Sequence record: NC_049395.1
Direction: 5' to 3' (one strand)
DNA length: 30,584 bases
Source: Escherichia phage ESSI2_ev015
Position numbers and translations under genes: made by a program. Under the pieces are notes generated by a model. The model was not told the DNA's origin and did not search any database. It worked only from the letters and a program-made list of their open reading frames with translations. Shown in pieces: positions 5,932 to 30,584 of this stretch. The stretch's first letter is position 1, and each line of letters opens with the position of its first letter.

Positions 5932-7108
5932 TCTCAATATTCACCGTCAGTGATTTCAGACGCGGCACGCTCAGTTCGCTGGTAATGTCTCCCAACGAAA
6001 ATGTCAGTGATTCCGTCTGCGCAAAGGTTTTATGAATTTCCCGCCCCAGTTGCGAAAAGGAAAACCGCGAATATGGCCATGTCTTTCTGACGTCATAATC
6101 AGCATTTTCACGAAAGGCACAGCGGATCATGTTTTCAATGCCGCCCTTCAGCGTTTTCACTTCTTCATCACTGAAGTTGTTCAGATTTTTGACATAAACC
6201 GTGACGACCAGATCGTGAAGCGTTTCCGGCATGGGATAGCACTGCATATCATCACCATGCCCGTGGTGTCCCTGCGTGTTGATATAGTCATTCACCGCAT
6301 CCACGAACGGCGCTGATGCCACACCACTGTCCAGTAATAAAAAGGCGTTGGCTGTTCCTGGCCCCCTCGGTGCTTCATGCTCAAAGAAAATCCGATCGAT
6401 ACTCAACCCGGCAACACTGGCGATCATTGAGCGATAAACCGCATCAGTGTGGTAATTCCCCACCAGATTGAACTGATTGCGGCAACGCTCGCGCAGTTCA
6501 TCATCACTTTCCTCGTCAGCCCCCGGCACGGTCAGCCAGTTTTCCTCACTGGCTACATGGCTGATACCGCTGACCGCCACCGGCAGAATGCGGTAATATC
6601 CGGGCGCAAGGTTATACGCGCCCCCGGTGCCGGTGGCTTTCACTGGCAGTAATGCGCTGGCCGCACCGGAAGCGATCACCACATCCTCAGTGGTGGCCAG
6701 CTCATACACTCGCCCGTTAATGCGTTCTGTCTGGATAATCGTCCCGGCTTTGACCGTCACAACGGCCTTTGCATCTTCTTTGAAGAAGCGGATCATCCCC
6801 TGTGCAGCGCTCGCCGGTTTTGCCGTGACGTTCACCGCCCAGGCCAGCAGACGCAACATGCTCCCGCTGGCTGTGGCCACAAACATATTGGCCAGCACGG
6901 TTAACACCAGAACGTCTTTAAGCCACATCACCGGGGCGGTCACAATGGCGGTGATTAATCGCCAGAACGGTGACATTCGGGATGTATTGGTGATAATTCC
7001 CTCATCTGCTGCAATCGCATTGAAGCGTTCCCGCACTTCGGCTTCCGTTACCGGCATACCGCTATCTTTCACCACTTCTTCAAAATCAACCTGCGGTTTT
7101 TCCGTCAT
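5924..7108 (-). CDS. Baseplate J-like protein (gpJ / Mu gp47-like)
   Basis: Track start is GTG; ATG at 7108 (MTEKPQVDFEEV...) has AGGTGGA Shine-Dalgarno and an ATGA overlap with the upstream stop. ~394 aa, position and size fit baseplate wedge J. Confidence 0.55.
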   Translation of the reverse strand: MTEKPQVDFEEVVKDSGMPVTEAEVRERFNAIAADEGIITNTSRMSPFWRLITAIVTAPVMWLKDVLVLTVLANMFVATASGSMLRLLAWAVNVTAKPASAAQGMIRFFKEDAKAVVTVKAGTIIQTERINGRVYELATTEDVVIASGAASALLPVKATGTGGAYNLAPGYYRILPVAVSGISHVASEENWLTVPGADEESDDELRERCRNQFNLVGNYHTDAVYRSMIASVAGLSIDRIFFEHEAPRGPGTANAFLLLDSGVASAPFVDAVNDYINTQGHHGHGDDMQCYPMPETLHDLVVTVYVKNLNNFSDEEVKTLKGGIENMIRCAFRENADYDVRKTWPYSRFSFSQLGREIHKTFAQTESLTFSLGDITSELSVPRLKSLTVNIENE

Positions 7109-7434
7109 AAATCCACCTGCGCAGAGATCCCGCCAAAATCGTATGTACTCGCGGTTACCCACAGCCGCTTCTGACTTTCTTCACTGATTTCCACCGTACC
7201 CGGCACAATGCGTTCATCATCTTCAATCAGTAATTCCATGCGGGTAAAAATATCCGCTCTCATTGTCGGGCTACGTTCGGCAATTAATTCCGTCGCTAAC
7301 CCACTTTCAATAATGGAATGAATAATGTCCTGCCCGATACTTTTTCGGTTATTACATAATTCAGGTTCATTACCGGTATTCAGAACAAAGTCACCGCCCT
7401 GAATCAGCAAATCGATATAAAGAACATCACTCAT
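7105..7434 (-). CDS. Small baseplate protein (gpW / gp25 / Mu gp46-like)
   Basis: ~109 aa; ATG at 7434 overlaps tape-measure stop (ATGA) with AGGAG upstream; immediately precedes the J-like gene as in P2 W-J. Confidence 0.45.
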   Translation of the reverse strand: MSDVLYIDLLIQGGDFVLNTGNEPELCNNRKSIGQDIIHSIIESGLATELIAERSPTMRADIFTRMELLIEDDERIVPGTVEISEESQKRLWVTASTYDFGGISAQVDL

Positions 7435-9398
7435 GCGCCAAGCTCCTGCCATTCCATAAGCTGGGATGGAGAAAGTGCTTCTTTGGTATGGAAATGCACT
7501 TCACCAATTTTCCGGCTGTTATCGGTTACGGATTTACTGTTGCTGCTGATTGTTTTGCTGATACCACCTTTATCCACACCTTTTAAATCACCACCCGTTG
7601 ACAGTGTATTTCCGGTTAATGGCTGCGTGGTTTCACTGGCCAGTGAAATATCCACGCCGGGAATTTTATTCAGTTTCTGAACAATCCAGTTCCACGACTT
7701 AAGAAATCCCCCTTTGATTGACTTCCAGACATTATCAAACAGCGACATAATGCCGGTGGCCATTCCCTTTAGCGCCTCAGACGGTGAAAATCCTGTCAGC
7801 AAAGAAATAAAGCTGTTCCATCCTTCACTGATATATTGCCAGGCTGAAGCAAAGATCCCCGCCAGCCATTTCACCACGGCGGCACATGTCTGGAAGGCTT
7901 CGGTATTCACCACCGCTGTTTTTATCGTGTCCCAGTGCTTAACCAGCAGATAACAACCGGCAACCAGCAGTGCAATGGCACCAATCACAAGCAGGATCGG
8001 CCAGCTCATCAGGTTGATACCAATTCCGGCCATTATTGCGGCCATGCGTACCGCCAGTAACGCACCGCGCAAGAACTTCAGCGTGGTATTCCAGGCGATT
8101 ACCGCTATTTGTGCCAGCCAGACAGTGGCCGTGTAGATTTTAGTAACCGCCGTTAACGCCACCCAGACCCCGCGCAATCCCATCATGATGAATCTGGATA
8201 CCCCCATCACGATATTGGCCACCGCACCCACGGCGGCAAAGCTCAGTAATGCCATCGACGCATAACCAATCACACGGGCAATGTTAGGAAATAACTGCAT
8301 CCAGCGGGCAAAGGTCTGCCCCATATCAGCCAGGCGATTCAGAACCGGATACAGCACCGGGATCAACGTCAGTCCGATCACGGTTTGAATGGCTTTCAGA
8401 ATTTGCACAAAGCGATCCCACGGCTTAACCATTTTTTGTGCCATTTCCTGGGTACGCTTCAGGCCGTCCGCGCCGCCCAGTTCGGTGATGTTCCGCTGAA
8501 GTAACGCGACATTGCCGTAAAGATGTTTAACCACTGCCGAACTGTCACCAAAGGCTGCATCCAGCTCCGCCTGGGCTTTCAGGTTCCCTTCAAGGCTTTT
8601 GCCATATTTGCCCTGCAACTTGATCAGCATTTCAGGCATGGACAGCATTTTGCCGGTAGAGTCAGTAAAGGACAGCCCCAGCTTTTTAGCGCCATCAATC
8701 GCACCGGTCATAAACCCTTCATAGGCGCTGCTGGCTTCCGTTCCCAGCGTCCGCTGAAGTTGCCCCAGCACGGCCAGCTGTTCATCCAGCCCCACGCCGT
8801 AGTTAGTCCCGACACCGCGCGCACCTTCCATCAAATCCTTGATAGTGGCCATTTCTGTGCCAAAGGTTTTGCGCATATAAACCATCTTGCCCGCCAGCTG
8901 TTCGGCAAATTCAACCTTACCCAGTCTGGCCGCATCGGCGGAAAAGTTACCGAACATCTGCCCCATAAATTCCGCCGTGTCCGCCGCAGTGGACTTGAGC
9001 GCAAACGCCAGGGTATTGGCGACTTTCGTCACCTTCGGCAGCTCATTACCCGTCAGTCCGGCAATGGAAGCGTTAATATTTTCCGTGGATCTAACGAACT
9101 CCACCGCGCTTGCGCCATAGGTTGTACTGAAACGCAGGGCATCACGCTGAACTGTCTTAAGCGCGGAATCATCGATCCCTTTTGCGGCGGCATCATTCAG
9201 CGCGTCATACATTTCAATTGCCGGTGATAACGCGCCTTTGATCGCCATCCCGACACCGGCCAGCGCCACCGCGCCGCCGCCAATCTGCATAAAGGCCGCT
9301 TTTGATTTTTCCGCAAAGCCGGTGACGTTACCCTGCGCCTGTTTTAACGGGCGGGATAATTTATCAATCAGGCTTAATGTAAAATCTAATTGTTTCAT
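7431..9398 (-). CDS. Tail tape measure protein
   Basis: 655 aa, Ala/Gly-rich helical N-terminal half plus hydrophobic segments (e.g. LLSFAAVGAVANIVMGV); lies directly downstream of the frameshifting chaperone pair. Confidence 0.8.
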   Translation of the reverse strand: MKQLDFTLSLIDKLSRPLKQAQGNVTGFAEKSKAAFMQIGGGAVALAGVGMAIKGALSPAIEMYDALNDAAAKGIDDSALKTVQRDALRFSTTYGASAVEFVRSTENINASIAGLTGNELPKVTKVANTLAFALKSTAADTAEFMGQMFGNFSADAARLGKVEFAEQLAGKMVYMRKTFGTEMATIKDLMEGARGVGTNYGVGLDEQLAVLGQLQRTLGTEASSAYEGFMTGAIDGAKKLGLSFTDSTGKMLSMPEMLIKLQGKYGKSLEGNLKAQAELDAAFGDSSAVVKHLYGNVALLQRNITELGGADGLKRTQEMAQKMVKPWDRFVQILKAIQTVIGLTLIPVLYPVLNRLADMGQTFARWMQLFPNIARVIGYASMALLSFAAVGAVANIVMGVSRFIMMGLRGVWVALTAVTKIYTATVWLAQIAVIAWNTTLKFLRGALLAVRMAAIMAGIGINLMSWPILLVIGAIALLVAGCYLLVKHWDTIKTAVVNTEAFQTCAAVVKWLAGIFASAWQYISEGWNSFISLLTGFSPSEALKGMATGIMSLFDNVWKSIKGGFLKSWNWIVQKLNKIPGVDISLASETTQPLTGNTLSTGGDLKGVDKGGISKTISSNSKSVTDNSRKIGEVHFHTKEALSPSQLMEWQELGA

Positions 9399-9843
9399 TC
9401 AGTGCCTTTAAATGCTTTTGCCACACCATTGGCCACGGCGATCCCCGTATATTCCCAGTGCCGATTATCCAGCCATATAGCGGCTGCAATATCGTCAACA
9501 GAGTCCTGACCATGCGGTAAATAATGACGGCGTAGAATTAAATATTGTTCGAGTCCATTTCTTTCAATTTCATGGACTCGCTTTGTCAGTTTTTTACTTC
9601 AATTTCCAGTTCTGGCGCATAAATATCATTTACTTTGCCAACCAGTTGAAGTGCAGCACCCGGACGCTTTAATACTTCGGCCAGTGCTTCTTTACTTTCC
9701 GTTGCCACAATTCGCGTCAGATAGTTATGTGCAGGGGCAACTTTATTATCCATTGCCATTTCATTAATAAATTTGTTGTAGGCGGTCTGATTTGGCTCAA
9801 AAACAATATCAACACCACAAACACACAGTTTAATTTGTTCCAT
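9395..9843 (-). CDS. Tail assembly chaperone, -1 frameshift extended form (P2 gpE+E'-like)
   Basis: Slippery A_AAA_AAC at 9589-9595 (- strand) at the end of the short ORF; the -1 frame is open for 64 further codons (LTKRVHEIERNGLEQYLILRRHYLPHGQDS...KAFKGTE) and stops at a TGA overlapping the tape-measure ATG. Read codon by codon. Confidence 0.6.
9586..9843 (-). CDS. Tail assembly chaperone, short form (P2 gpE-like)
   Basis: 85 aa (track start is GTG at 9846; ATG at 9843); ends at a slippery heptamer immediately upstream of the tape measure gene. Confidence 0.65.
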   Translation of the reverse strand: MEQIKLCVCGVDIVFEPNQTAYNKFINEMAMDNKVAPAHNYLTRIVATESKEALAEVLKRPGAALQLVGKVNDIYAPELEIEVKN

Positions 9844-10129
9844 CACTCATACTCTCTCTTAAATTAATTTCGTCCACTAACTGATTATGACGCGCAGCAC
9901 ACTGGCCATAAATTTCAAGATAAATCGTCATTAATTCTGCTGCGTCTTTACCCGTGGCACCATTCAGGCGCGGCAGCTGCGTGGCGCATTTAGTTTTCAG
10001 GTTTTCCTGATAACGCACGTTCGGTACCGGCTGCGGCGCTGTTGTACATGCTGACAAACTCATCAGACAGGCAACGATTAGTAAAAACGGGCTTAAGTAT
10101 TTCCGTGCGTATCTCACGCGGTGCCACAT
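9830..10129 (-). CDS. Outer-membrane spanin lipoprotein (Rz1/LysC-like)
   Basis: 99 aa in a different frame, starting inside the Rz-like gene and running past its end; N-terminal signal peptide with lipobox LSAC (…FLLIVACLMSLSAC). Confidence 0.55.
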   Translation of the reverse strand: MWHRVRYARKYLSPFLLIVACLMSLSACTTAPQPVPNVRYQENLKTKCATQLPRLNGATGKDAAELMTIYLEIYGQCAARHNQLVDEINLRESMSDGTN

Positions 10130-10328
10130 TTTTTAACGCCTCCAGTTTATCTTCCAGCGCTCTGGCCGAATCACTGGCAATGCCCTGCATTACTTTTCGC
10201 GATTCATTACCGGCCACCTGCGCCGCTGTATTGATTGCCAGCTCTAAGCTGTCACGCCGCCAGTCAGCGGTCAGCCAGCCCCAGACAAACGCCAGCGCCA
10301 CCACAACCAACCACTGCCCGCTGCTCAT
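9990..10328 (-). CDS. Inner-membrane spanin (Rz/LysB-like)
   Basis: 112 aa, N-terminal transmembrane helix (WLVVVALAFVWGWL) then charged helical region; ATGA overlap with endolysin stop. Confidence 0.6.
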   Translation of the reverse strand: MSSGQWLVVVALAFVWGWLTADWRRDSLELAINTAAQVAGNESRKVMQGIASDSARALEDKLEALKNVAPREIRTEILKPVFTNRCLSDEFVSMYNSAAAGTERALSGKPEN

Positions 10329-10669
10329 CAGCGCACCCCGTTATGTTCCAGACTGAAATGATTGCCATCCGGTCTGGATTTGAAGCGCCCGCCCCAGGAA
10401 CCACCCAGTGATTCCCAGTATTCCCCCAGTGGCAGATAATCTTCTGTGCGGGTTTTATATTCGCCCTTCACGAACAGATTAAAATCCACAGCCAGACGCA
10501 GAGTGTGCAGACTGTTAGAAATACCGCTGCCTTTCTTCGCATTCAGCGCAGCCTGTTCTGGTGTGCGGTACGCTTCACCAAACGTCAGCCACATGCCATT
10601 TGCATTGGCATACTGAATTAACAACGCAATCATTGATGTAAACCGTTGCTGTTTTTCACTCAGGGTCAT
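10328..10669 (-). CDS. Endolysin, M15/VanY-like zinc peptidase
   Basis: ATG at 10669 (MTLSEKQQ...) with GGGAG Shine-Dalgarno; H...D...H arrangement (SLHTLRLAVDF ... DGNHFSLE) typical of small M15 peptidase endolysins. Track ORF upstream extension has no start signal. Confidence 0.65.
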   Translation of the reverse strand: MTLSEKQQRFTSMIALLIQYANANGMWLTFGEAYRTPEQAALNAKKGSGISNSLHTLRLAVDFNLFVKGEYKTRTEDYLPLGEYWESLGGSWGGRFKSRPDGNHFSLEHNGVR

Positions 10670-10958
10670 TTGTTTTGCTCCCGTTCTGTTTTCCCGCTGC
10701 GCGTCTGCGCAGCCACACTTCCACCGCCTGATAACCGGCAATCCCCAGCGCCGCCCCCAGCCCCTGAATGGCCAGCGGGCTGGCATCCGGGATCTGAATC
10801 AGCACCGCCCCTGCCACCACTGAAACCAGACTGCCCAGGATCACGCGACCGGCAAACAGGCGCGGCGTGATGGGGTCATTACTGGTCAGCACATTGCCGA
10901 TGGCAATCAGTGCGCCAATGATCAGCAGTGAATAAAGGCTCTTTTCATGCTCCTGCAT
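10656..10958 (-). CDS. Holin
   Basis: 100 aa with two to three predicted transmembrane segments and a charged C-terminus; immediately upstream of and overlapping the endolysin. Confidence 0.6.
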   Translation of the reverse strand: MQEHEKSLYSLLIIGALIAIGNVLTSNDPITPRLFAGRVILGSLVSVVAGAVLIQIPDASPLAIQGLGAALGIAGYQAVEVWLRRRAAGKQNGSKTNDPE

Positions 10959-10967
10959 CCCTGCCCC

Positions 10968-11423
10968 TTATCCGATCAGGTTTTCTGTGGCTTCCGCTTC
11001 CAGATACGGCACACCGTTGATGTTGACGAATTTCGGACTGGTCACGAAATATTTGATTTTGTGCGTGGTCACACCGCCACCTTTCGGATCAATATCCAGC
11101 AGGTTGCTGACCTGCAATTTATTGCCGAACGTCTCCACCTTCATTTCTTCACTACTGGCTTTGGCATAGAAAAGAAAATCAAGTGGGGGAAGTCCGCGCC
11201 ATGAACCCGCTGCGCGGGCTTTGGCTGTCAGCACCTGAAGTGTTTTTGAACTGACTTCAATTTCCCCTTCGGCGGCAACATCGCCGTCCACATACCCGTC
11301 AGGGACACCACGCGTCTGGGCGGCAGCGCTGTTATCCGTAATATCGAGCGTGATTTTCTCGATATGGATTAGATCGCCGTCCATATAGGTGTCAAACGAC
11401 ATACCCGAAATACGTTTGGTCAT
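10968..11423 (-). CDS. Tail tube protein (putative)
   Basis: 151 aa directly downstream of the sheath-like gene with ATGA overlap; size and position fit the tube of a contractile tail. Family not verified. Confidence 0.5.
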   Translation of the reverse strand: MTKRISGMSFDTYMDGDLIHIEKITLDITDNSAAAQTRGVPDGYVDGDVAAEGEIEVSSKTLQVLTAKARAAGSWRGLPPLDFLFYAKASSEEMKVETFGNKLQVSNLLDIDPKGGGVTTHKIKYFVTSPKFVNINGVPYLEAEATENLIG

Positions 11424-12547
11424 GCTGTGGCCTCCAGACTCGCATCCAGTAACAGACTGATGGTGATTTGCAGCGGCACTTCCCAGGTGCGCACCACAAT
11501 GTAAATATCCACCGCCTTTTTGTTTTTCCAGACAATGGTCACATCACCATCCTGCGGCGGCTTCACCTCTCCCGGAAATGACACACCGTTAATGCTGGCC
11601 GCAGTGGACATTTCACGCAGTGGACGGGCAAACAGTGTCTGATGTGCGGCGATACTTCCCGGCGTGCTGTTCAGCGAGCGATCCGCGATTTTGCTGATAG
11701 CCAGCAGACGAACACGGCGGGCAGCTTTATCCGCAACGCGCAGTGTTTCAATCGACTGGTAATCACCGCCCTCAACATCCAGCGTGCGGCCATCAGCCCA
11801 GTAAAAACCGTCATAATCCGGGTACCACATCGGCACACTGAAACGCTGTGCTTCAAGCGCCTGAAGTGTGGCCAGTTCCAGCACTTCTCCGGTACCATCA
11901 ACCGGCATTTCATCACTGCCCAGATTCATCAGAGCACCGGTTTTAACCCGCGCCGGACTGTCAGCAATGGTTACAGCGCGGCTACACAGGCGACCAGCCA
12001 GCACGCCCGGTTCATTTCCCCACAGGCGGGGAACCAGCTGCACCGCCTTTTCTGCAATACCATCCTGAAGGGTGGCCATGCGTACCAGATAATCCGCCTG
12101 TGCTTCTTCATCCTGCATTCCCTGTGCGGCCAGGATGAACCACACCCAGCGGCCATACTTTGAAATCAGGGTGGATCGTAACGTCACGGCCTGATTTACC
12201 TGCGCTTTAGCGGTCACATCGTCAGACAGCACCACGCCTTCCACAGAGCACACCACCTGCGCGGCCAGAACCGCTTTCACCCAGGCATCTGCCTCCGCAT
12301 CAGCTGGCAGGACGTGAATGAACCCCCACCAGTTCTGGCCAGCGTTCGCCAGCGCAGCCAGAACATCATTTTTCAGCGGGCTGGCTTCCTCGCCCAGCAG
12401 TGAATCAAAATCACTCTGGACATTCACCGCCAGCGTTTTCCCAACATTTTTGGTACCCGTACCGATAAACAGCAGTGTGCGTTCCACCTCATTGGTTTCA
12501 CCCAACAGCTGATTTACCTGGTTTACGGTCACAATTGGCCAGGTCAT
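11420..12547 (-). CDS. Tail sheath protein (putative)
   Basis: 375 aa, sheath-like size, between tail completion genes and tube; ATGA coupling at both ends. Confidence 0.5.
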   Translation of the reverse strand: MTWPIVTVNQVNQLLGETNEVERTLLFIGTGTKNVGKTLAVNVQSDFDSLLGEEASPLKNDVLAALANAGQNWWGFIHVLPADAEADAWVKAVLAAQVVCSVEGVVLSDDVTAKAQVNQAVTLRSTLISKYGRWVWFILAAQGMQDEEAQADYLVRMATLQDGIAEKAVQLVPRLWGNEPGVLAGRLCSRAVTIADSPARVKTGALMNLGSDEMPVDGTGEVLELATLQALEAQRFSVPMWYPDYDGFYWADGRTLDVEGGDYQSIETLRVADKAARRVRLLAISKIADRSLNSTPGSIAAHQTLFARPLREMSTAASINGVSFPGEVKPPQDGDVTIVWKNKKAVDIYIVVRTWEVPLQITISLLLDASLEATA

Positions 12548-19032: not shown

Positions 19033-20090
19033 GTAAAAAGAAACGCTTTGTTAAGCGCGACCAGCGCGGCGACAAATCAAAAAAGATGAGCATTATCACA
19101 TTCGGCAAACCTGAACCGGTTCTGACTACCGGCACAGATTACCGTGATATCTGGTACGACAATGCCGCCGATCACTTCACCCAGCCGATTGACCGGCTGG
19201 CACTCGCACAACTGATTAATCTTAACGGTCAGCACGGCGGCATCATTCACGCCCGTAAAAACATGATTGTTTCAGACTACCAGGGGGGCGGGCTTATTCA
19301 CGACCAGCTGGAAGCGGCAGCGTTTGACTATATAACCTTTGGGGATATTGCGATTGCCAAAATTCGTAACGGCTGGGGCGATGTGATCGCACTTGAACCC
19401 TTGCCCGGTCTGTATATTCGCCGCCGCAAAGTCAGAGATAACGCGCTGGATAAGCCCGGCGACTACGTGGTGTTACAGGAAGGGGAACCACAGGTATGGC
19501 CAGAAGAAGATATTATCTTCATCAAAATGTATGACCCGCAACAGCATATCTACGGACTGCCGGACTACATCGGCGGTGTGCATTCCGCGTTACTTAACAG
19601 TGAAGCGGTCATTTTCCGACGCCGCTATTACCACAACGGTGCGCACACTGGCGGTATTCTTTATACCCGCGATCCCAGCATGACGGACGAAATGGAGGAA
19701 GAAATTGAACAGCAGCTGCGTGACAGCAAAGGGATCGGTAACTTCTCCACCATCCTTGTAAACATTCCTGGTGGAGACGGTGACGCCATCAAATTCATTG
19801 AAATGGGGGATATTTCCGCGAAGGATGAATTTGCCAACATCAAAAACATCAGCGCCCAGGACATTCTGAACGCGCACCGTTTCCCTGCTGGCCTCGCCGG
19901 TATTGTTCCGCAGAACACTGCCGGACTGGGGGATGTTGAAAAGGCTGAACGCATTTACAAGAAAAGCGAAATAGCCCCCATCCAGCGCCGTTTCATGCTG
20001 GCCGTTAACAACGATCCCGAAATACCGGAAAGGCTACACCTTAACTTTGATTTAAGTTACACAGAATCAACGGATAAGGGTGCGGCATGA
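19029..20090 (+). CDS. Q: Portal protein, gpQ-like
   Basis: 353 aa immediately after P with AAGGAAAGAGG Shine-Dalgarno; size and position match the P2 portal. Confidence 0.8.
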   Translation: MSKKKRFVKRDQRGDKSKKMSIITFGKPEPVLTTGTDYRDIWYDNAADHFTQPIDRLALAQLINLNGQHGGIIHARKNMIVSDYQGGGLIHDQLEAAAFDYITFGDIAIAKIRNGWGDVIALEPLPGLYIRRRKVRDNALDKPGDYVVLQEGEPQVWPEEDIIFIKMYDPQQHIYGLPDYIGGVHSALLNSEAVIFRRRYYHNGAHTGGILYTRDPSMTDEMEEEIEQQLRDSKGIGNFSTILVNIPGGDGDAIKFIEMGDISAKDEFANIKNISAQDILNAHRFPAGLAGIVPQNTAGLGDVEKAERIYKKSEIAPIQRRFMLAVNNDPEIPERLHLNFDLSYTESTDKGAA

Positions 20091-26354: not shown

Positions 26355-26576
26355 TTACGCGTTAAGCGAAATATTGCATTCGCTTAACGCTTCAACGGTC
26401 AGAGCGGCCATGTTTATTTCCACACGGCCTTTAGGCATTTCTCCTTTGCCACGAATAGGCAGACGGCCATCCCGGATCATGTCACGGGCTGTGCTTTCAG
26501 CTGTATTCGTTAATTTGCACCACTCTTTAAGTGGTAGATAAGGGGCTGGGATGGTGATTGTAATGTTAGGACGCAT
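26355..26576 (-). CDS. Apl/Cox-like small HTH protein (excision/switch regulator)
   Basis: 73 aa, first gene of the early operon, divergent from the repressor; helix-turn-helix-like segment KEWCKLTNTAESTARDMIRDGRLP. Confidence 0.5.
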   Translation of the reverse strand: MRPNITITIPAPYLPLKEWCKLTNTAESTARDMIRDGRLPIRGKGEMPKGRVEINMAALTVEALSECNISLNA

Positions 26577-26710: not shown

Positions 26711-27298
26711 ATGAGCAAATTCCCTTTTGAGCAGATAGGGCACAGCAGCGACGTGCTTGATCGAGTAGTAGAGGCTTACGGCTTCACTTCAAAGCTACAG
26801 CTTGCGGAACATTTCGATATGGCCTCAAGTAGCCTTTCCGCAAGGTTTAAACGAGGAATATTCCCGGCTGATATGGTGGTTCGCTGCGTAGCAGAAACCG
26901 GGGCGTCTCTTGAGTGGCTATCTACTGGCCAGGGGAAGAAATTCGATGATGATCAGTTAGACATCATGAAATTTCCCCGTAAAAAATTAGTTGATGGCCA
27001 GCTCTATGACTCTGGTTACGCAATGTTCGATAAAGTTTTTTTCAGGGCAGGAGCGCCACTCCCCGCAGCACCTTTCTGCGTACTAGATGAAAAAGCGCAG
27101 TACATCCTAGACCAGAAATTTTCCGAGGTTTTTGATGGCGAATGGCTGGTAAATATCGAAGGAAAAACCAGTATCAGAACGCTGACACGCATCCCGGTAA
27201 AAAAGGTACGCGTCAGTGGTGTTGGCATGGCTTTTGACTGTGGGCTGGAAGATATCGAAATTATCGGCCGCGTGGTCATGACGATAACAAACGCATAA
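26711..27298 (+). CDS. cI: CI-like immunity repressor
   Basis: 195 aa (186 CI is ~192 aa as I recall), immediately upstream of and overlapping int (TAATG); divergent from the early operon. Confidence 0.6.
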   Translation: MSKFPFEQIGHSSDVLDRVVEAYGFTSKLQLAEHFDMASSSLSARFKRGIFPADMVVRCVAETGASLEWLSTGQGKKFDDDQLDIMKFPRKKLVDGQLYDSGYAMFDKVFFRAGAPLPAAPFCVLDEKAQYILDQKFSEVFDGEWLVNIEGKTSIRTLTRIPVKKVRVSGVGMAFDCGLEDIEIIGRVVMTITNA

Positions 27299-28531: not shown

Positions 28532-28695
28532 GTTTATAGTGGTCAGTGTCCCCTTTTTGTCCCCTCACTTTCACCCACACTCATCTATACCTCAGTTGTT
28601 AGCACTTCACCGAACCATGACGATTGAACGCTTTGCGCTTTTTTTACATACTGTTTCAATCTCATTTGCCAATAATTTTTAGTCAGGATGACAAT

Positions 28696-29322
28696 ATGAC
28701 TTCGTACAATGAACTGAAAGAATGTATCCGCCTTGAAGTCATTGGCCATGACAAATCCTTTTCATGGCGTAAAGCGTTACTTCGTACCCGACGCAACCAG
28801 AAGAAGCACTTCCTGTTCTGGTGGCGTATTGCTTCATGGCTCTATGCCCAGAATAGTAAGTTCAAAAAGCGCATTGCCCGCAGGATTGAAAACCGCCTCA
28901 AGTACCGGCACAGCGTTGATATTTCGCTGTCATGCAAAATCGGCAAGGGTTTAAACATTGCTCATCTAAACGGCATTGTGATTACTGACAATTGCGTGAT
29001 TGGTGATTTCGCCGACCTGAAGCAAGGCATCACCATAGGGTTACGCACCGACAGTGCCGACGCGATGATAGTCATTGGTGATCGTGTTGATATTGGCTGT
29101 AACTCGTCCATTCTGGGCGGCAAGGTTACGATCGGAAACAATGTCACCATTGGTGCGCATTCGCTAGTGCTTCAGAACATCCCCAGCGACACCGTTTATA
29201 AAAACAAGATCACGCCAGTGTATACATCCAAACTACCGCAGACGGAATATCAGGAAAAGCAGCCTTTTGTCACTGGCAATGCGACAAAAGAAGCGTCCCG
29301 TTCCGCAGAAGCAGTGCTGTAA
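28696..29322 (+). CDS. Hexapeptide-repeat acetyltransferase, serine acetyltransferase (CysE/WcaB)-like
   Basis: Track start is TTG; ATG at 28696 with AGGATGA upstream. Left-handed beta-helix hexapeptide repeats (IGKGLNIAHLNGIVITDNCVIGDFADLKQGITIG...) preceded by a WRIASWLY-type helix as in the CysE family; low-GC region. Confidence 0.65.
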   Translation: MTSYNELKECIRLEVIGHDKSFSWRKALLRTRRNQKKHFLFWWRIASWLYAQNSKFKKRIARRIENRLKYRHSVDISLSCKIGKGLNIAHLNGIVITDNCVIGDFADLKQGITIGLRTDSADAMIVIGDRVDIGCNSSILGGKVTIGNNVTIGAHSLVLQNIPSDTVYKNKITPVYTSKLPQTEYQEKQPFVTGNATKEASRSAEAVL

Positions 29323-29531
29323 TTTCGCTGAACAAATTTCAGTTGTGAAGATTTCATAAATTTACGTGCAGCCCGCGCCAGTTCTTACAAGCGGGCTTAT
29401 CTCTATAATCTCTGGCTTACCACGATCCACACCGCCTAAAATCTAAAGTTGATATGCAGCCTATGAGGATAGATAATCAGTTTGTGGCTTGTTTTACGTT
29501 ATAACTAAATCTTATTAAAAGAGGTATTTAA

Positions 29532-29846
29532 ATGAACTTAAACAATAACCCTACAGTAAGCCAACTCTCACAACTAATCTCTGTTTGCGACGATAACGCA
29601 GGTCATCATATTCTTTGGGTATCTAAATCTGGCGATGTAGCAGTTACACAAATAAATGATTTGTCTCCAATTGGCTTTGAAGAAAACACCCCATCAATGG
29701 CAATGCGTTATGAAACTTTCCAACGTGGAAATGACTATGTTGGAAAAAATGCAGCAGAAGATGCAACTCACATGGAAAGACTACTTAGAGATTTGCTAAA
29801 CGAATGGCCATTATATAACGGCAATCGTGTACGGTACATTGGCTAA
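29532..29846 (+). CDS. Hypothetical protein (104 aa), first gene of an AT-rich two-gene cassette
   Basis: ATG with AAGAGG Shine-Dalgarno; AT-rich codon usage distinct from the prophage; no recognisable motif. Confidence 0.5.
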   Translation: MNLNNNPTVSQLSQLISVCDDNAGHHILWVSKSGDVAVTQINDLSPIGFEENTPSMAMRYETFQRGNDYVGKNAAEDATHMERLLRDLLNEWPLYNGNRVRYIG

Positions 29847-29861
29847 TAAAAAAGGTGGGGT

Positions 29862-30230
29862 ATGGCAACCAATTGTTATGTAAGAGTTTTAGATAATAAC
29901 ACTAAACGTGTCTATGATGTTGGGCCATTTATTAATAGCGGTAATGAGGCCTTCTCTGGAGCAGATAGCGCCATAAATTGGATTTACAAACAAATTGGCT
30001 TAGTCAAAATACAATATCCAGAATCAACTTTAATAAAGCATAAATGGGATTATGTTAAAGATGATTTTTATGGCCCTACTGCTGATGTAAAAGTTGAAAT
30101 ATCAAACTTTATTTTTGAGATTTTTAAACTGCTACCTGCTGACACTCAAAATGTAATTAATGAACAAATTACAGATAATTTGCCCACATGGTACAAAGAT
30201 GAAAAAGAAAGTCATATTGATGAAAATTGA
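29862..30230 (+). CDS. Hypothetical protein (122 aa), second gene of the AT-rich cassette
   Basis: ATG 15 nt after the upstream stop with AAGGTGG Shine-Dalgarno; no recognisable motif. Confidence 0.5.
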   Translation: MATNCYVRVLDNNTKRVYDVGPFINSGNEAFSGADSAINWIYKQIGLVKIQYPESTLIKHKWDYVKDDFYGPTADVKVEISNFIFEIFKLLPADTQNVINEQITDNLPTWYKDEKESHIDEN

Positions 30231-30300
30231 TTACCTATTGGCGCACTTAAAGTGTAGGTATGCTAATTTCACTTTCTGAATTTAATCTAATCCCCCTAAA

Positions 30301-30331
30301 ACCCGCACCACAACTGGCATTGCGGGTTTTT
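30301..30331 (+). terminator. Possible terminator after the two-gene cassette
   Basis: Stem ACCCGCA/TGCGGGT with a long 13-nt loop followed by TTTTT, ~70 nt after the stop at 30230; loop length is atypical. Confidence 0.3.
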
Positions 30332-30584
30332 CCTCCTACACATTGCCTTCGACATTTGATCTTCTCCACTCCACAAAAAATACAATTTATTATTGTATTT
30401 CAATTGCTTGCCTTTCCACTTAGATCCTTTACAGATCCTCTAAACTGAAAAATGCTGAAATTCTTTTCAATCTTTTCAGTTCCTGTTCTTTGGCAAGCAG
30501 CCAACCGTGGCGCGGTCTGGCGGTGCTGTTTGTAGAAAAATAAAACTGAAAAAATTTCCAGATCCAGAAACCGCAGGCGGGTGC

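Follow-up and report, generated by a model that had tools for sequence, protein, structure and literature searches.

How does Escherichia phage ESSI2_ev015 use the DNA between the chaperone and tape-measure genes of its tail module? In sequence record NC_049395.1, analysed here as one stretch of 30,584 nucleotides (nt; hereafter, the window), an open reading frame (ORF) for an 85-amino-acid (85-aa) tail assembly chaperone is separated from the gene for the tape measure protein by 187 nt that appear to be free of ORFs. An earlier inspection of the letters alone (the sequence-only reading) proposed that a programmed −1 ribosomal frameshift at the end of the chaperone ORF carries translation through this gap. 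We find this proposal supported by a domain match in the extension, the lack of a start codon, conservation across 151 loci, frozen synonymous sites and a covarying hairpin. Judging from these sequence comparisons, we put the probability that a −1 ribosomal frameshift at the heptamer A_AAA_AAC yields a 149-aa fusion of the chaperone with a DUF6890 domain at roughly 0.86. Such a frameshift is an expected feature of the chaperone of a long-tailed phage; it is unannotated here and changes no concept.

All genes in this part of the window lie on the minus strand, a point that the sequence-only reading did not mention; its numbers all proved correct. The chaperone ORF (85 codons plus TGA, 9586..9843) starts at ATG 9843, with an alternative GTG one codon upstream at 9846, and ends with GAA ATT GAA GTA AAA AAC TGA, the last four codons occupying 9597..9586. 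Its 0-frame codons GTA AAA AAC contain the slippery heptamer A_AAA_AAC (9589..9595) in the X_XXY_YYZ phase, and the 0-frame stop TGA (9586..9588) adjoins the heptamer. Just upstream, a TGA in the −1 frame (9599..9601) restricts the window for a productive shift to 10 nt, and the overlap of the two frames, AGTAAAAAAC, consists of the heptamer plus 3 nt. Therefore, a productive shift is possible at the heptamer only. This 10-nt overlap is kept in 77 of 80 close relatives (enterobacterial-type IMG/VR loci). Beyond the heptamer, the −1 frame runs through 64 sense codons (9398..9589; CTG ACA AAG CGA ... GGC ACT GAA, translated as LTKRVHEIERNGLEQ...AFKGTE) to a TGA (9395..9397) that overlaps the tape-measure ATG (9398..9396) as ATGA, as the sequence-only reading had described. 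The coding −1 frame thus accounts for the gap, given there as about 190 base pairs (bp), and the predicted product of chaperone plus extension is 149 aa long. Two of the features by which the lambda G/GT class is recognized are present: a two-ORF layout that immediately precedes the tape-measure gene and follows the tube gene within the tail block, and an X_XXY_YYZ heptamer in the 0-frame phase within the frame overlap. At least 64 open −1-frame codons follow 0.7% of positions inside the genes of the window. AAAAAAC occurs 10 times on the minus strand of the window and so is no rare string; the significance of the site therefore comes from the coding signal and its conservation, not from the heptamer by itself.

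The coding signal of the extension is strong. The translated −1 frame matches Pfam DUF6890 (PF21830; E = 1.8e-23; 82.4 bits against a cut-off of 23.6, fusion residues 104-147) as well as phrog_7050. In an alignment of 79 IMG/VR relatives, variable columns within the extension fell 25, 22 and 56 times on −1-frame codon positions 1, 2 and 3, respectively, and synonymous versus nonsynonymous differences numbered 781 versus 458 when counted in the −1 frame, compared with 119 versus 1139 and 90 versus 1191 in the other two frames. No stops interrupt the −1 frame of the relatives downstream of the junction, whereas the 0 and +1 frames contain means of 2.8 and 5.9 stops per 63 codons. AlphaFold2, run on the chaperone and the extension separately, predicted a confident three-helix domain for the extension (predicted local distance difference test score, pLDDT, 94.9). 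A fold search with this model returned no significant match in the PDB or BFVD, and a sequence-profile search of the PDB returned none.

Conservation of the slip site was assessed in 151 loci: the window, 16 annotated loci, 80 enterobacterial-type IMG/VR loci and 54 Vibrio-type IMG/VR loci. The motif GTAAAAAA[C/A] and its frame relation are invariant in 151/151 loci, which span five orders of Gammaproteobacteria. GTAAAAAAC is found in the window, in 10 of the 16 further annotated loci and in all 80 enterobacterial-type IMG/VR loci; GTAAAAAAA is found in the other six annotated loci (Vibrio, Salinivibrio and Pseudoalteromonas) and in 54/54 Vibrio-type IMG/VR loci. A stop codon abuts the heptamer in 150/151 loci, its presence being near-universal and its identity varying among TGA, TAA and TAG; the exception is Pseudoalteromonas phage ACA1, in which GTAAAAAAA lies 18 nt before the stop. 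In the 16 annotated loci, the −1 frame runs for 56-64 codons up to the tape-measure start. When the fusion was used as a tblastn query, 57 of 74 phage records were matched in two pieces, one per frame, with coverage of at least 80%; these include HP1, HP2, F108, phiO18P, ESSI-2 and phages of Yersinia, Salmonella, Vibrio, Salinivibrio and Pseudoalteromonas. One GC-rich, Aeromonas-like locus (L049, 1238-1330 of IMG/VR UViG 2551306561_000001) keeps GTAAAAAACTGA and carries an extra base just past the junction, and its extension stops after 26 codons; it is the sole broken case among the 151 loci and represents either a decaying prophage or a sequencing error.

The constraint on the slippery run is also visible at synonymous sites. 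In an alignment whose members are 34-84% identical to the fusion of the window, only eight columns are invariant, Val83 and Lys84 among them, and in 15 diverse phages the codons of these two residues are GTA in 15/15 and AAA in 15/15 cases. Other conserved residues with several available codons use two to five synonymous codons each in the same phages. Frozen GTA AAA codons next to varied codons elsewhere indicate a constraint on the slippery run at the nucleotide level.

The sequence-only reading had recommended a search for a downstream stem–loop, and one was found. An RNA hairpin is predicted at 9550..9580, with a 5′ arm CGAGUCCAU (9580..9572), a 13-nt loop and a 3′ arm AUGGACUCG (9558..9550); the arms pair perfectly, and the spacer between heptamer and hairpin is 8 nt (9588..9581). 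The minimum free energy (MFE) of the hairpin is −14.0 kcal/mol (z = −6.27 against dinucleotide shuffles), and 0 of 200 shuffles were as good. Perfect hairpins of at least 9 bp with a loop of 3-15 nt number five distinct cases in the 30.6-kb window, this one included. Another of the five lies inside the sheath gene (12107-12147). Across the 34 enterobacterial sequences that are distinct, pairing of the 8-bp core is kept in 92.5% of cells, compared with at most 38% when the partners are slid, and compensatory changes are seen: pair 25-41 is GC in 17, AU in 16 and GU in 1, and pair 21-45 is GC in 33 and AU in 1. The AU form of the latter pair is that of L054, whose two arms carry matched changes, Val to Ile on one and Leu to Phe on the other.

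Other lineages carry hairpins of their own. Vibrio-type loci (L180-L233) have an unrelated 9-14 bp stem (GCUUGUCGC...GCGACAGGC) 7 nt downstream, which in one subclade is replaced at the same position by GUUACG/CGUAAC; in PV94, SMHB1 and PY3, hairpins start 2-6 nt downstream. Overall, the hairpins of Vibrio, Salinivibrio and Pseudoalteromonas relatives lie 2-8 nt downstream and are not homologous to that of the window. A nearby hairpin is therefore recurrent across lineages but not universal, and the stimulator seems to have been reinvented lineage by lineage. Around the site in the window, the signal is confined to the local hairpin, and a 60-nt segment has an MFE that is average for the genome. 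An Rfam scan of the whole window matched no family, no Shine–Dalgarno-like stimulator was visible by eye in the upstream sequence GCGCCAGAACUGGAAAUUGAAGU, and inspection by eye for a pseudoknot gave a weak 4-bp possibility, between the loop sequence AGAA and a downstream UUCU.

Several observations weigh against a ribosomal frameshift at this site or against the hairpin as its stimulator. First, a literature search retrieved no experimental record of the fusion product for this phage or any HP1-type phage, and no paper on DUF6890 or on a chaperone frameshift of the HP1 type, the phage list of Xu et al. 2004 lying outside the search. Second, A_AAA_AAC is a weak heptamer in E. coli reporters, giving 0.16% frameshifting with no stimulator, 0.19% with the IS911 stimulator and 0.74% with the IS3 pseudoknot; in the same three contexts, A_AAA_AAA gave 0.4, 0.8 and 25% and A_AAA_AAG gave 0.3, 4.3 and 39% (PMC4066793 Table S3). 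According to the authors, bacterial ribosomes poorly accept re-pairing from AAC to AAA (PMC4066793). With less than 1% in E. coli reporters, a low efficiency is to be expected here, and the yield may be well below that of lambda, in which the ratio of G to GT is 30:1 (PMC5009743). Third, few independent events underlie the compensatory changes in the enterobacterial hairpin, and conserved residues (RVH and NGLE) are encoded in the stem arms as well; for these two reasons, we regard the covariation as moderate evidence, not proof. Last, in HP1 (L009) and F108 (L011), the hairpin, with a 13-bp stem, lies about 22 nt downstream; no convincing hairpin was found in phiO18P, YenM_324, ACA1 or L049; and the 121-nt context of the site in the window is not unusually structured (z = −0.68).

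Could RNA polymerase, instead of the ribosome, change the frame? The conserved element is a homopolymeric A run, and relatives with seven A's exist. Addition of one A by the polymerase within the A6 run (A7 in the Vibrio type) would yield the identical downstream frame, and a subset of the mRNAs would then encode the fusion in a single frame with no ribosomal shift. Efficient slippage by bacterial RNA polymerase is, however, documented on runs of about nine or more A or T, and a run of six A's is short by comparison. AAAAAAA is under-represented in all three phases of E. coli genes, possibly as a result of slippage (PMC4066793), and the weak performance of A_AAA_AAC on E. coli ribosomes leaves space for a transcriptional route; set against this, −1 ribosomal frameshifting in E. 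coli is listed as proven for IS1, which has the same A6C motif (PMC4066793). A covarying hairpin 7-8 nt downstream has the typical geometry of a ribosomal stimulator and no obvious role in slippage, and the stop that abuts the run in 150/151 loci is easier to tie to ribosome pausing. We therefore consider transcriptional slippage improbable and retain the ribosomal frameshift as the preferred explanation.

A separate question is whether the −1 frame could be translated alone, as a small DUF6890 protein, from a non-canonical start or by termination–reinitiation at the CUGA junction. NCBI annotates stand-alone 'DUF6890 family protein' coding sequences (CDSs) in E. coli and many other genomes, and at the AAC UGA junction of the window a CUG overlaps the stop, much like the ATGA of coupled genes. 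However, read directly, the −1-frame ORF contains no ATG, and the annotated starts differ between near-identical loci. In E. coli RefSeq loci, PGAP placed the start at ATA (27 aa; L002, 1973-2056) in the locus identical to the window, at TTG (46 aa; L003, 1915-2055) in NT1F10 and at CTG exactly at the junction (64 aa; L004, 1862-2056) in SC477; such arbitrary ATA, TTG or CTG starts were present in 4/4 E. coli genomes inspected, out of 38 matching. ESSI-2, YenM_324, HP1 and F108 have CTA as the junction codon where the window has CTG, and the Vibrio, Salinivibrio and Pseudoalteromonas types have ATA; no reinitiation codon is therefore conserved. Neither a promoter nor a terminator was found on the minus strand of the 187-nt gap. 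In a collection of 5.8 billion proteins, DUF6890 matches (best 120 of 165) scatter between 45 and 93 aa and contain PF21830 alone, the best 120 matches to the fusion query are all 81-99 aa long and contain the chaperone domain alone, and neither set of 120 includes a protein with chaperone and DUF6890 in one frame. An independent gene would also leave the frozen synonymous sites of GTA AAA unexplained. Together, these results show that the −1 frame does encode protein and lacks an initiation signal of its own, as in the lambda G/GT class; an independently translated gene is highly improbable, and 'DUF6890 family protein' genes are most probably mis-annotated frameshift extensions of the Phage_TAC_10 chaperone across Gammaproteobacteria. 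DUF6890 would be better annotated as a CDS joined to the chaperone, which gives the domain a testable role.

An artefact, in which a single-base sequencing error in the A run (the objection that the sequence-only reading had itself raised) or a mutation there split one ORF or created a pseudogene, has a negligible probability: homopolymer runs are error-prone and L049 does carry an extra base that truncates its extension, but region 9300-9950 is 100% identical to a stretch of the complete E. coli EH09-18-41 chromosome, the same two-frame layout occurs in 150 other independently sequenced loci, including those of the viable phages HP1, HP2, phiO18P, F108 and ESSI-2, and no homologue with both parts in one frame was found among the matches listed, the breadth of conservation and the identity to a finished chromosome together excluding a sequencing error.

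We propose that programmed −1 ribosomal frameshifting operates as follows. Most ribosomes would terminate at the UGA at 9588..9586, with the 85-aa protein as their product. A small minority would slip back one base on A_AAA_AAC (9595..9589), giving ...EIEVKN-LTKR..., then read the 64 codons of the −1 frame and end at the UGA that overlaps the tape-measure start, producing the 149-aa fusion. The abutting 0-frame stop and the 8-9 bp hairpin 8 nt downstream probably favour the slip. By analogy with gpG and gpGT of lambda, both products would bind the tape measure protein through the N-terminal domain that they have in common, whereas recruitment of the tail tube protein would fall to the extension, present only in the rare fusion. 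The ribosomal nature of the shift, its efficiency, the roles of the stop and hairpin and the function in assembly are what we infer, the last of these from lambda.

A composite site of heptamer, abutting stop and hairpin recurs across HP1-like phages of Gammaproteobacteria, although the hairpin is not universal. The near-universal abutting stop suggests that slow termination may promote a slip in the P site. A bolder idea, which we offer tentatively and consider rather doubtful, is that the site is no plain tandem-slippage heptamer but a composite recoding signal in which a 0-frame stop directly after A_AAA_AA[C/A] is obligatory: slow termination would allow the tRNA in the P site (Asn or Lys) to slip, with a lineage-specific hairpin 7-8 nt downstream as an aid. 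If this were true, a heptamer that performs poorly in bacteria (less than 1% in reporters) would deliver a physiologically tuned ratio of products, and Pfam DUF6890 would exist only as a frameshift-encoded, tube-recruiting counterpart of the lambda T domain, never free. The HP1-like phages also provide a natural series on how bacterial ribosomes use weak heptamers, with C or A as the last base, three stops, and lineage-specific hairpins or none found.

The 0-frame product is assigned to a chaperone family by both sequence and predicted structure. Over its full length, the 85-aa protein matches Pfam Phage_TAC_10 (PF10963; E = 6e-37; 126 bits against a gathering cut-off of 25.7, residues 4-85), and it also matches phrog_1214. 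Its AlphaFold2 model (pLDDT 92.7) consists of a β-hairpin and four helices and gave a single strong match in the PDB, 3fgx_A (template modelling score, TM, 0.74; probability 1.00; E = 7e-3). 3FGX has been grouped with 2OB9 and HK97 gp13 as a tail assembly chaperone fold (PMC9603447); 2OB9 itself was absent from the Foldseek matches of the model. According to the model, the N-terminal product has the tail-assembly-chaperone fold (HK97 gp13/YqbN/Rbstp2171), as expected for a member of the lambda G/GT class.

The gene neighbourhood places the locus in a tail module of the HP1 type, not the FI-FII-E-E′-T module of P2, and the window as a whole is an HP1-like member of the Peduoviridae. Region 9300-9950 is about 95% identical to Escherichia phage ESSI2_ev040 (Peduoviridae, genus Quadragintavirus), whose genome is 30,597 bp long compared with 30,584 bp for the window. 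The genes encode, in order, sheath, tube (Pfam Phage_HP1_Orf24), holin, M15 endolysin, two overlapping spanins and the 85-aa chaperone, followed by the gap, the tape measure protein (PhageMin_Tail), a DUF2590 protein and baseplate J. The sheath (11420-12547) and tail tube (10968-11423) genes thus lie upstream of the chaperone (12547..10968), with a complete four-gene lysis cassette in between (9830-10958), as in HP1: a holin (10656-10958), an M15 endolysin (longest ORF, 10328-10786), a LysB-like ORF (9990-10328) and a LysC/Rz1-like ORF (9830-10129) that overlaps the LysB-like ORF in another frame. The LysC stop overlaps the start region of the chaperone ORF. Downstream, the tape-measure gene (7431..9398) encodes 655 aa and matches Pfam PhageMin_Tail (PF10145; E = 2.6e-22); in ESSI2_ev040, as well as in E. 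coli genomes, its homologue carries the annotation 'tail tape measure protein', and its product is the presumed client of the chaperone. The last 22 nt of the tape-measure gene (7431-7452) are shared with the DUF2590 ORF (longest ORF, 7105-7452); in the annotation of ESSI2_ev040, the DUF2590 gene has a later start and the overlap is 4 nt. This overlap is ordinary translational coupling and not a further recoding site.

Elsewhere in the window, the cargo beside the integrase (28624-30230) is unlike that of ESSI2_ev040, which encodes an abortive-infection protein and a serine acetyltransferase: it comprises a hexapeptide-repeat transferase-like ORF (28624-29322), with a Pfam Hexapep match slightly under the cut-off, together with two ORFs (29532-29846 and 29862-30230) that match no Pfam model. 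Beyond the cargo genes, a hairpin that resembles a terminator (AAACCCGCA...TGCGGGTTTTT) lies at 30298-30335 and an AT-rich palindrome (ACAAT...ATTGT) at 30378-30400, the latter close to the right end of the window. Between a Cox-like gene and a CI-type repressor gene (26711-27298), an inverted repeat at 26359-26392 is perfect over 12-13 bp (CGCGTTAAGCGAA/TTCGCTTAACGCT-like, loop 8 nt); its possible roles are those of an operator, a terminator or an RNA element in the immunity switch.

To which known system does the frameshift site belong? Lambda G/GT is the paradigm of the conserved tail-assembly-chaperone frameshift in long-tailed double-stranded DNA phages (Levin 1993; Xu, Hendrix, Duda 2004, 2013, 2014, summarised in PMC5009743). 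The window shares with it two overlapping ORFs directly upstream of the tape-measure gene, a heptamer close to the end of the first ORF at which a −1 shift gives (in the window, would give) the longer product, an extension with no start of its own, an expected low efficiency of shifting and a predicted fold that resembles solved chaperones (3FGX). The two systems have no sequence similarity, and the window differs in its A_AAA_AAC heptamer, abutting stop and conserved downstream hairpin, and in being a myovirus tail module in which the lysis cassette lies between the tube and chaperone genes. In lambda, the slippery heptamer is G_GGA_AAG.

The sequence-only reading had described the frameshift as E/E′-type, reproducing the arrangements of P2 and lambda, and had suggested a comparison with the sites of P2-family phages. 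As an analogy in layout, this holds. P2 E/E+E′, reportedly the subject of a study by Christie et al. in 2002, belongs to the Peduoviridae as well, stands before the tape-measure gene T and has a −1 extension that overlaps the tape-measure start; in RefSeq NC_001895, from which the P2 data were taken, its products are 91 and 142 aa long, compared with 85 and 149 aa for the window. Homology between the two is not detectable. The Pfam families differ (Phage_TAC_7, PF10109, and Phage_P2_GpE, PF06528, in P2; Phage_TAC_10, PF10963, and DUF6890, PF21830, in the window), and BLASTP aligned no part of the window fusion with P2 E+E′. With hhalign, a 13-sequence fusion profile gave a probability of 0.4% against P2 E+E′ and the DUF6890 profile gave 0.3% against a 17-sequence GpE′ profile, these profiles being so shallow that a very remote homology could escape them; the 80 P2-type loci retrieved from IMG/VR are nearly all 99-100% identical to P2 and were useless for profile diversity. 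Membership in the P2 E/E′ family was rejected, as Pfam, BLASTP and hhalign all gave no support for it. The heptamer and its placement differ too: P2 uses T_TTT_TTG (record positions 19678-19684) with the E stop 18 nt downstream, whereas A_AAA_AAC in the window abuts its stop. P2 has no lysis genes between tube and chaperone, whereas the window has four. HP1-like and P2-like Peduoviridae thus have chaperone pairs that are unrelated in sequence, with different heptamers placed differently relative to the stop.

The heptamer itself is identical to that of IS1 insA-insB′, which is active in the same host species. The IS1 shift is listed as proven, low-level and with no established stimulator (PMC4066793). 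It produces a transposase fusion from unrelated genes, whereas the site in the window is followed by a stop and a hairpin.

By sequence, the true family is the HP1 orf26 type, which combines Phage_TAC_10 with DUF6890 and is represented by HP1, HP2, F108, phiO18P, ESSI-2 and phages of Vibrio and Pseudoalteromonas. Both parts of the window fusion are homologous to their counterparts in this family (34-84% identity) and score above the gathering thresholds of both Pfam models; the motif GTAAAAAA[C/A], the stop that follows it, the frame relation, the −1 extension up to the tape-measure start and the gene neighbourhood are shared. In the GenBank record of ACA1, the homologous gene is annotated with a 'projected programmed frameshift analogous to P2'; in the other records inspected, the frameshift is unannotated or the extension is called a separate gene. 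Within the family, the enterobacterial subgroup that includes the window is distinguished by a heptamer ending in C, a stop that is TGA, coupling to the tape-measure gene through ATGA and a hairpin of its own with an 8-nt spacer, whereas in the other subgroups the heptamer ends in A and the hairpins differ or none was found.

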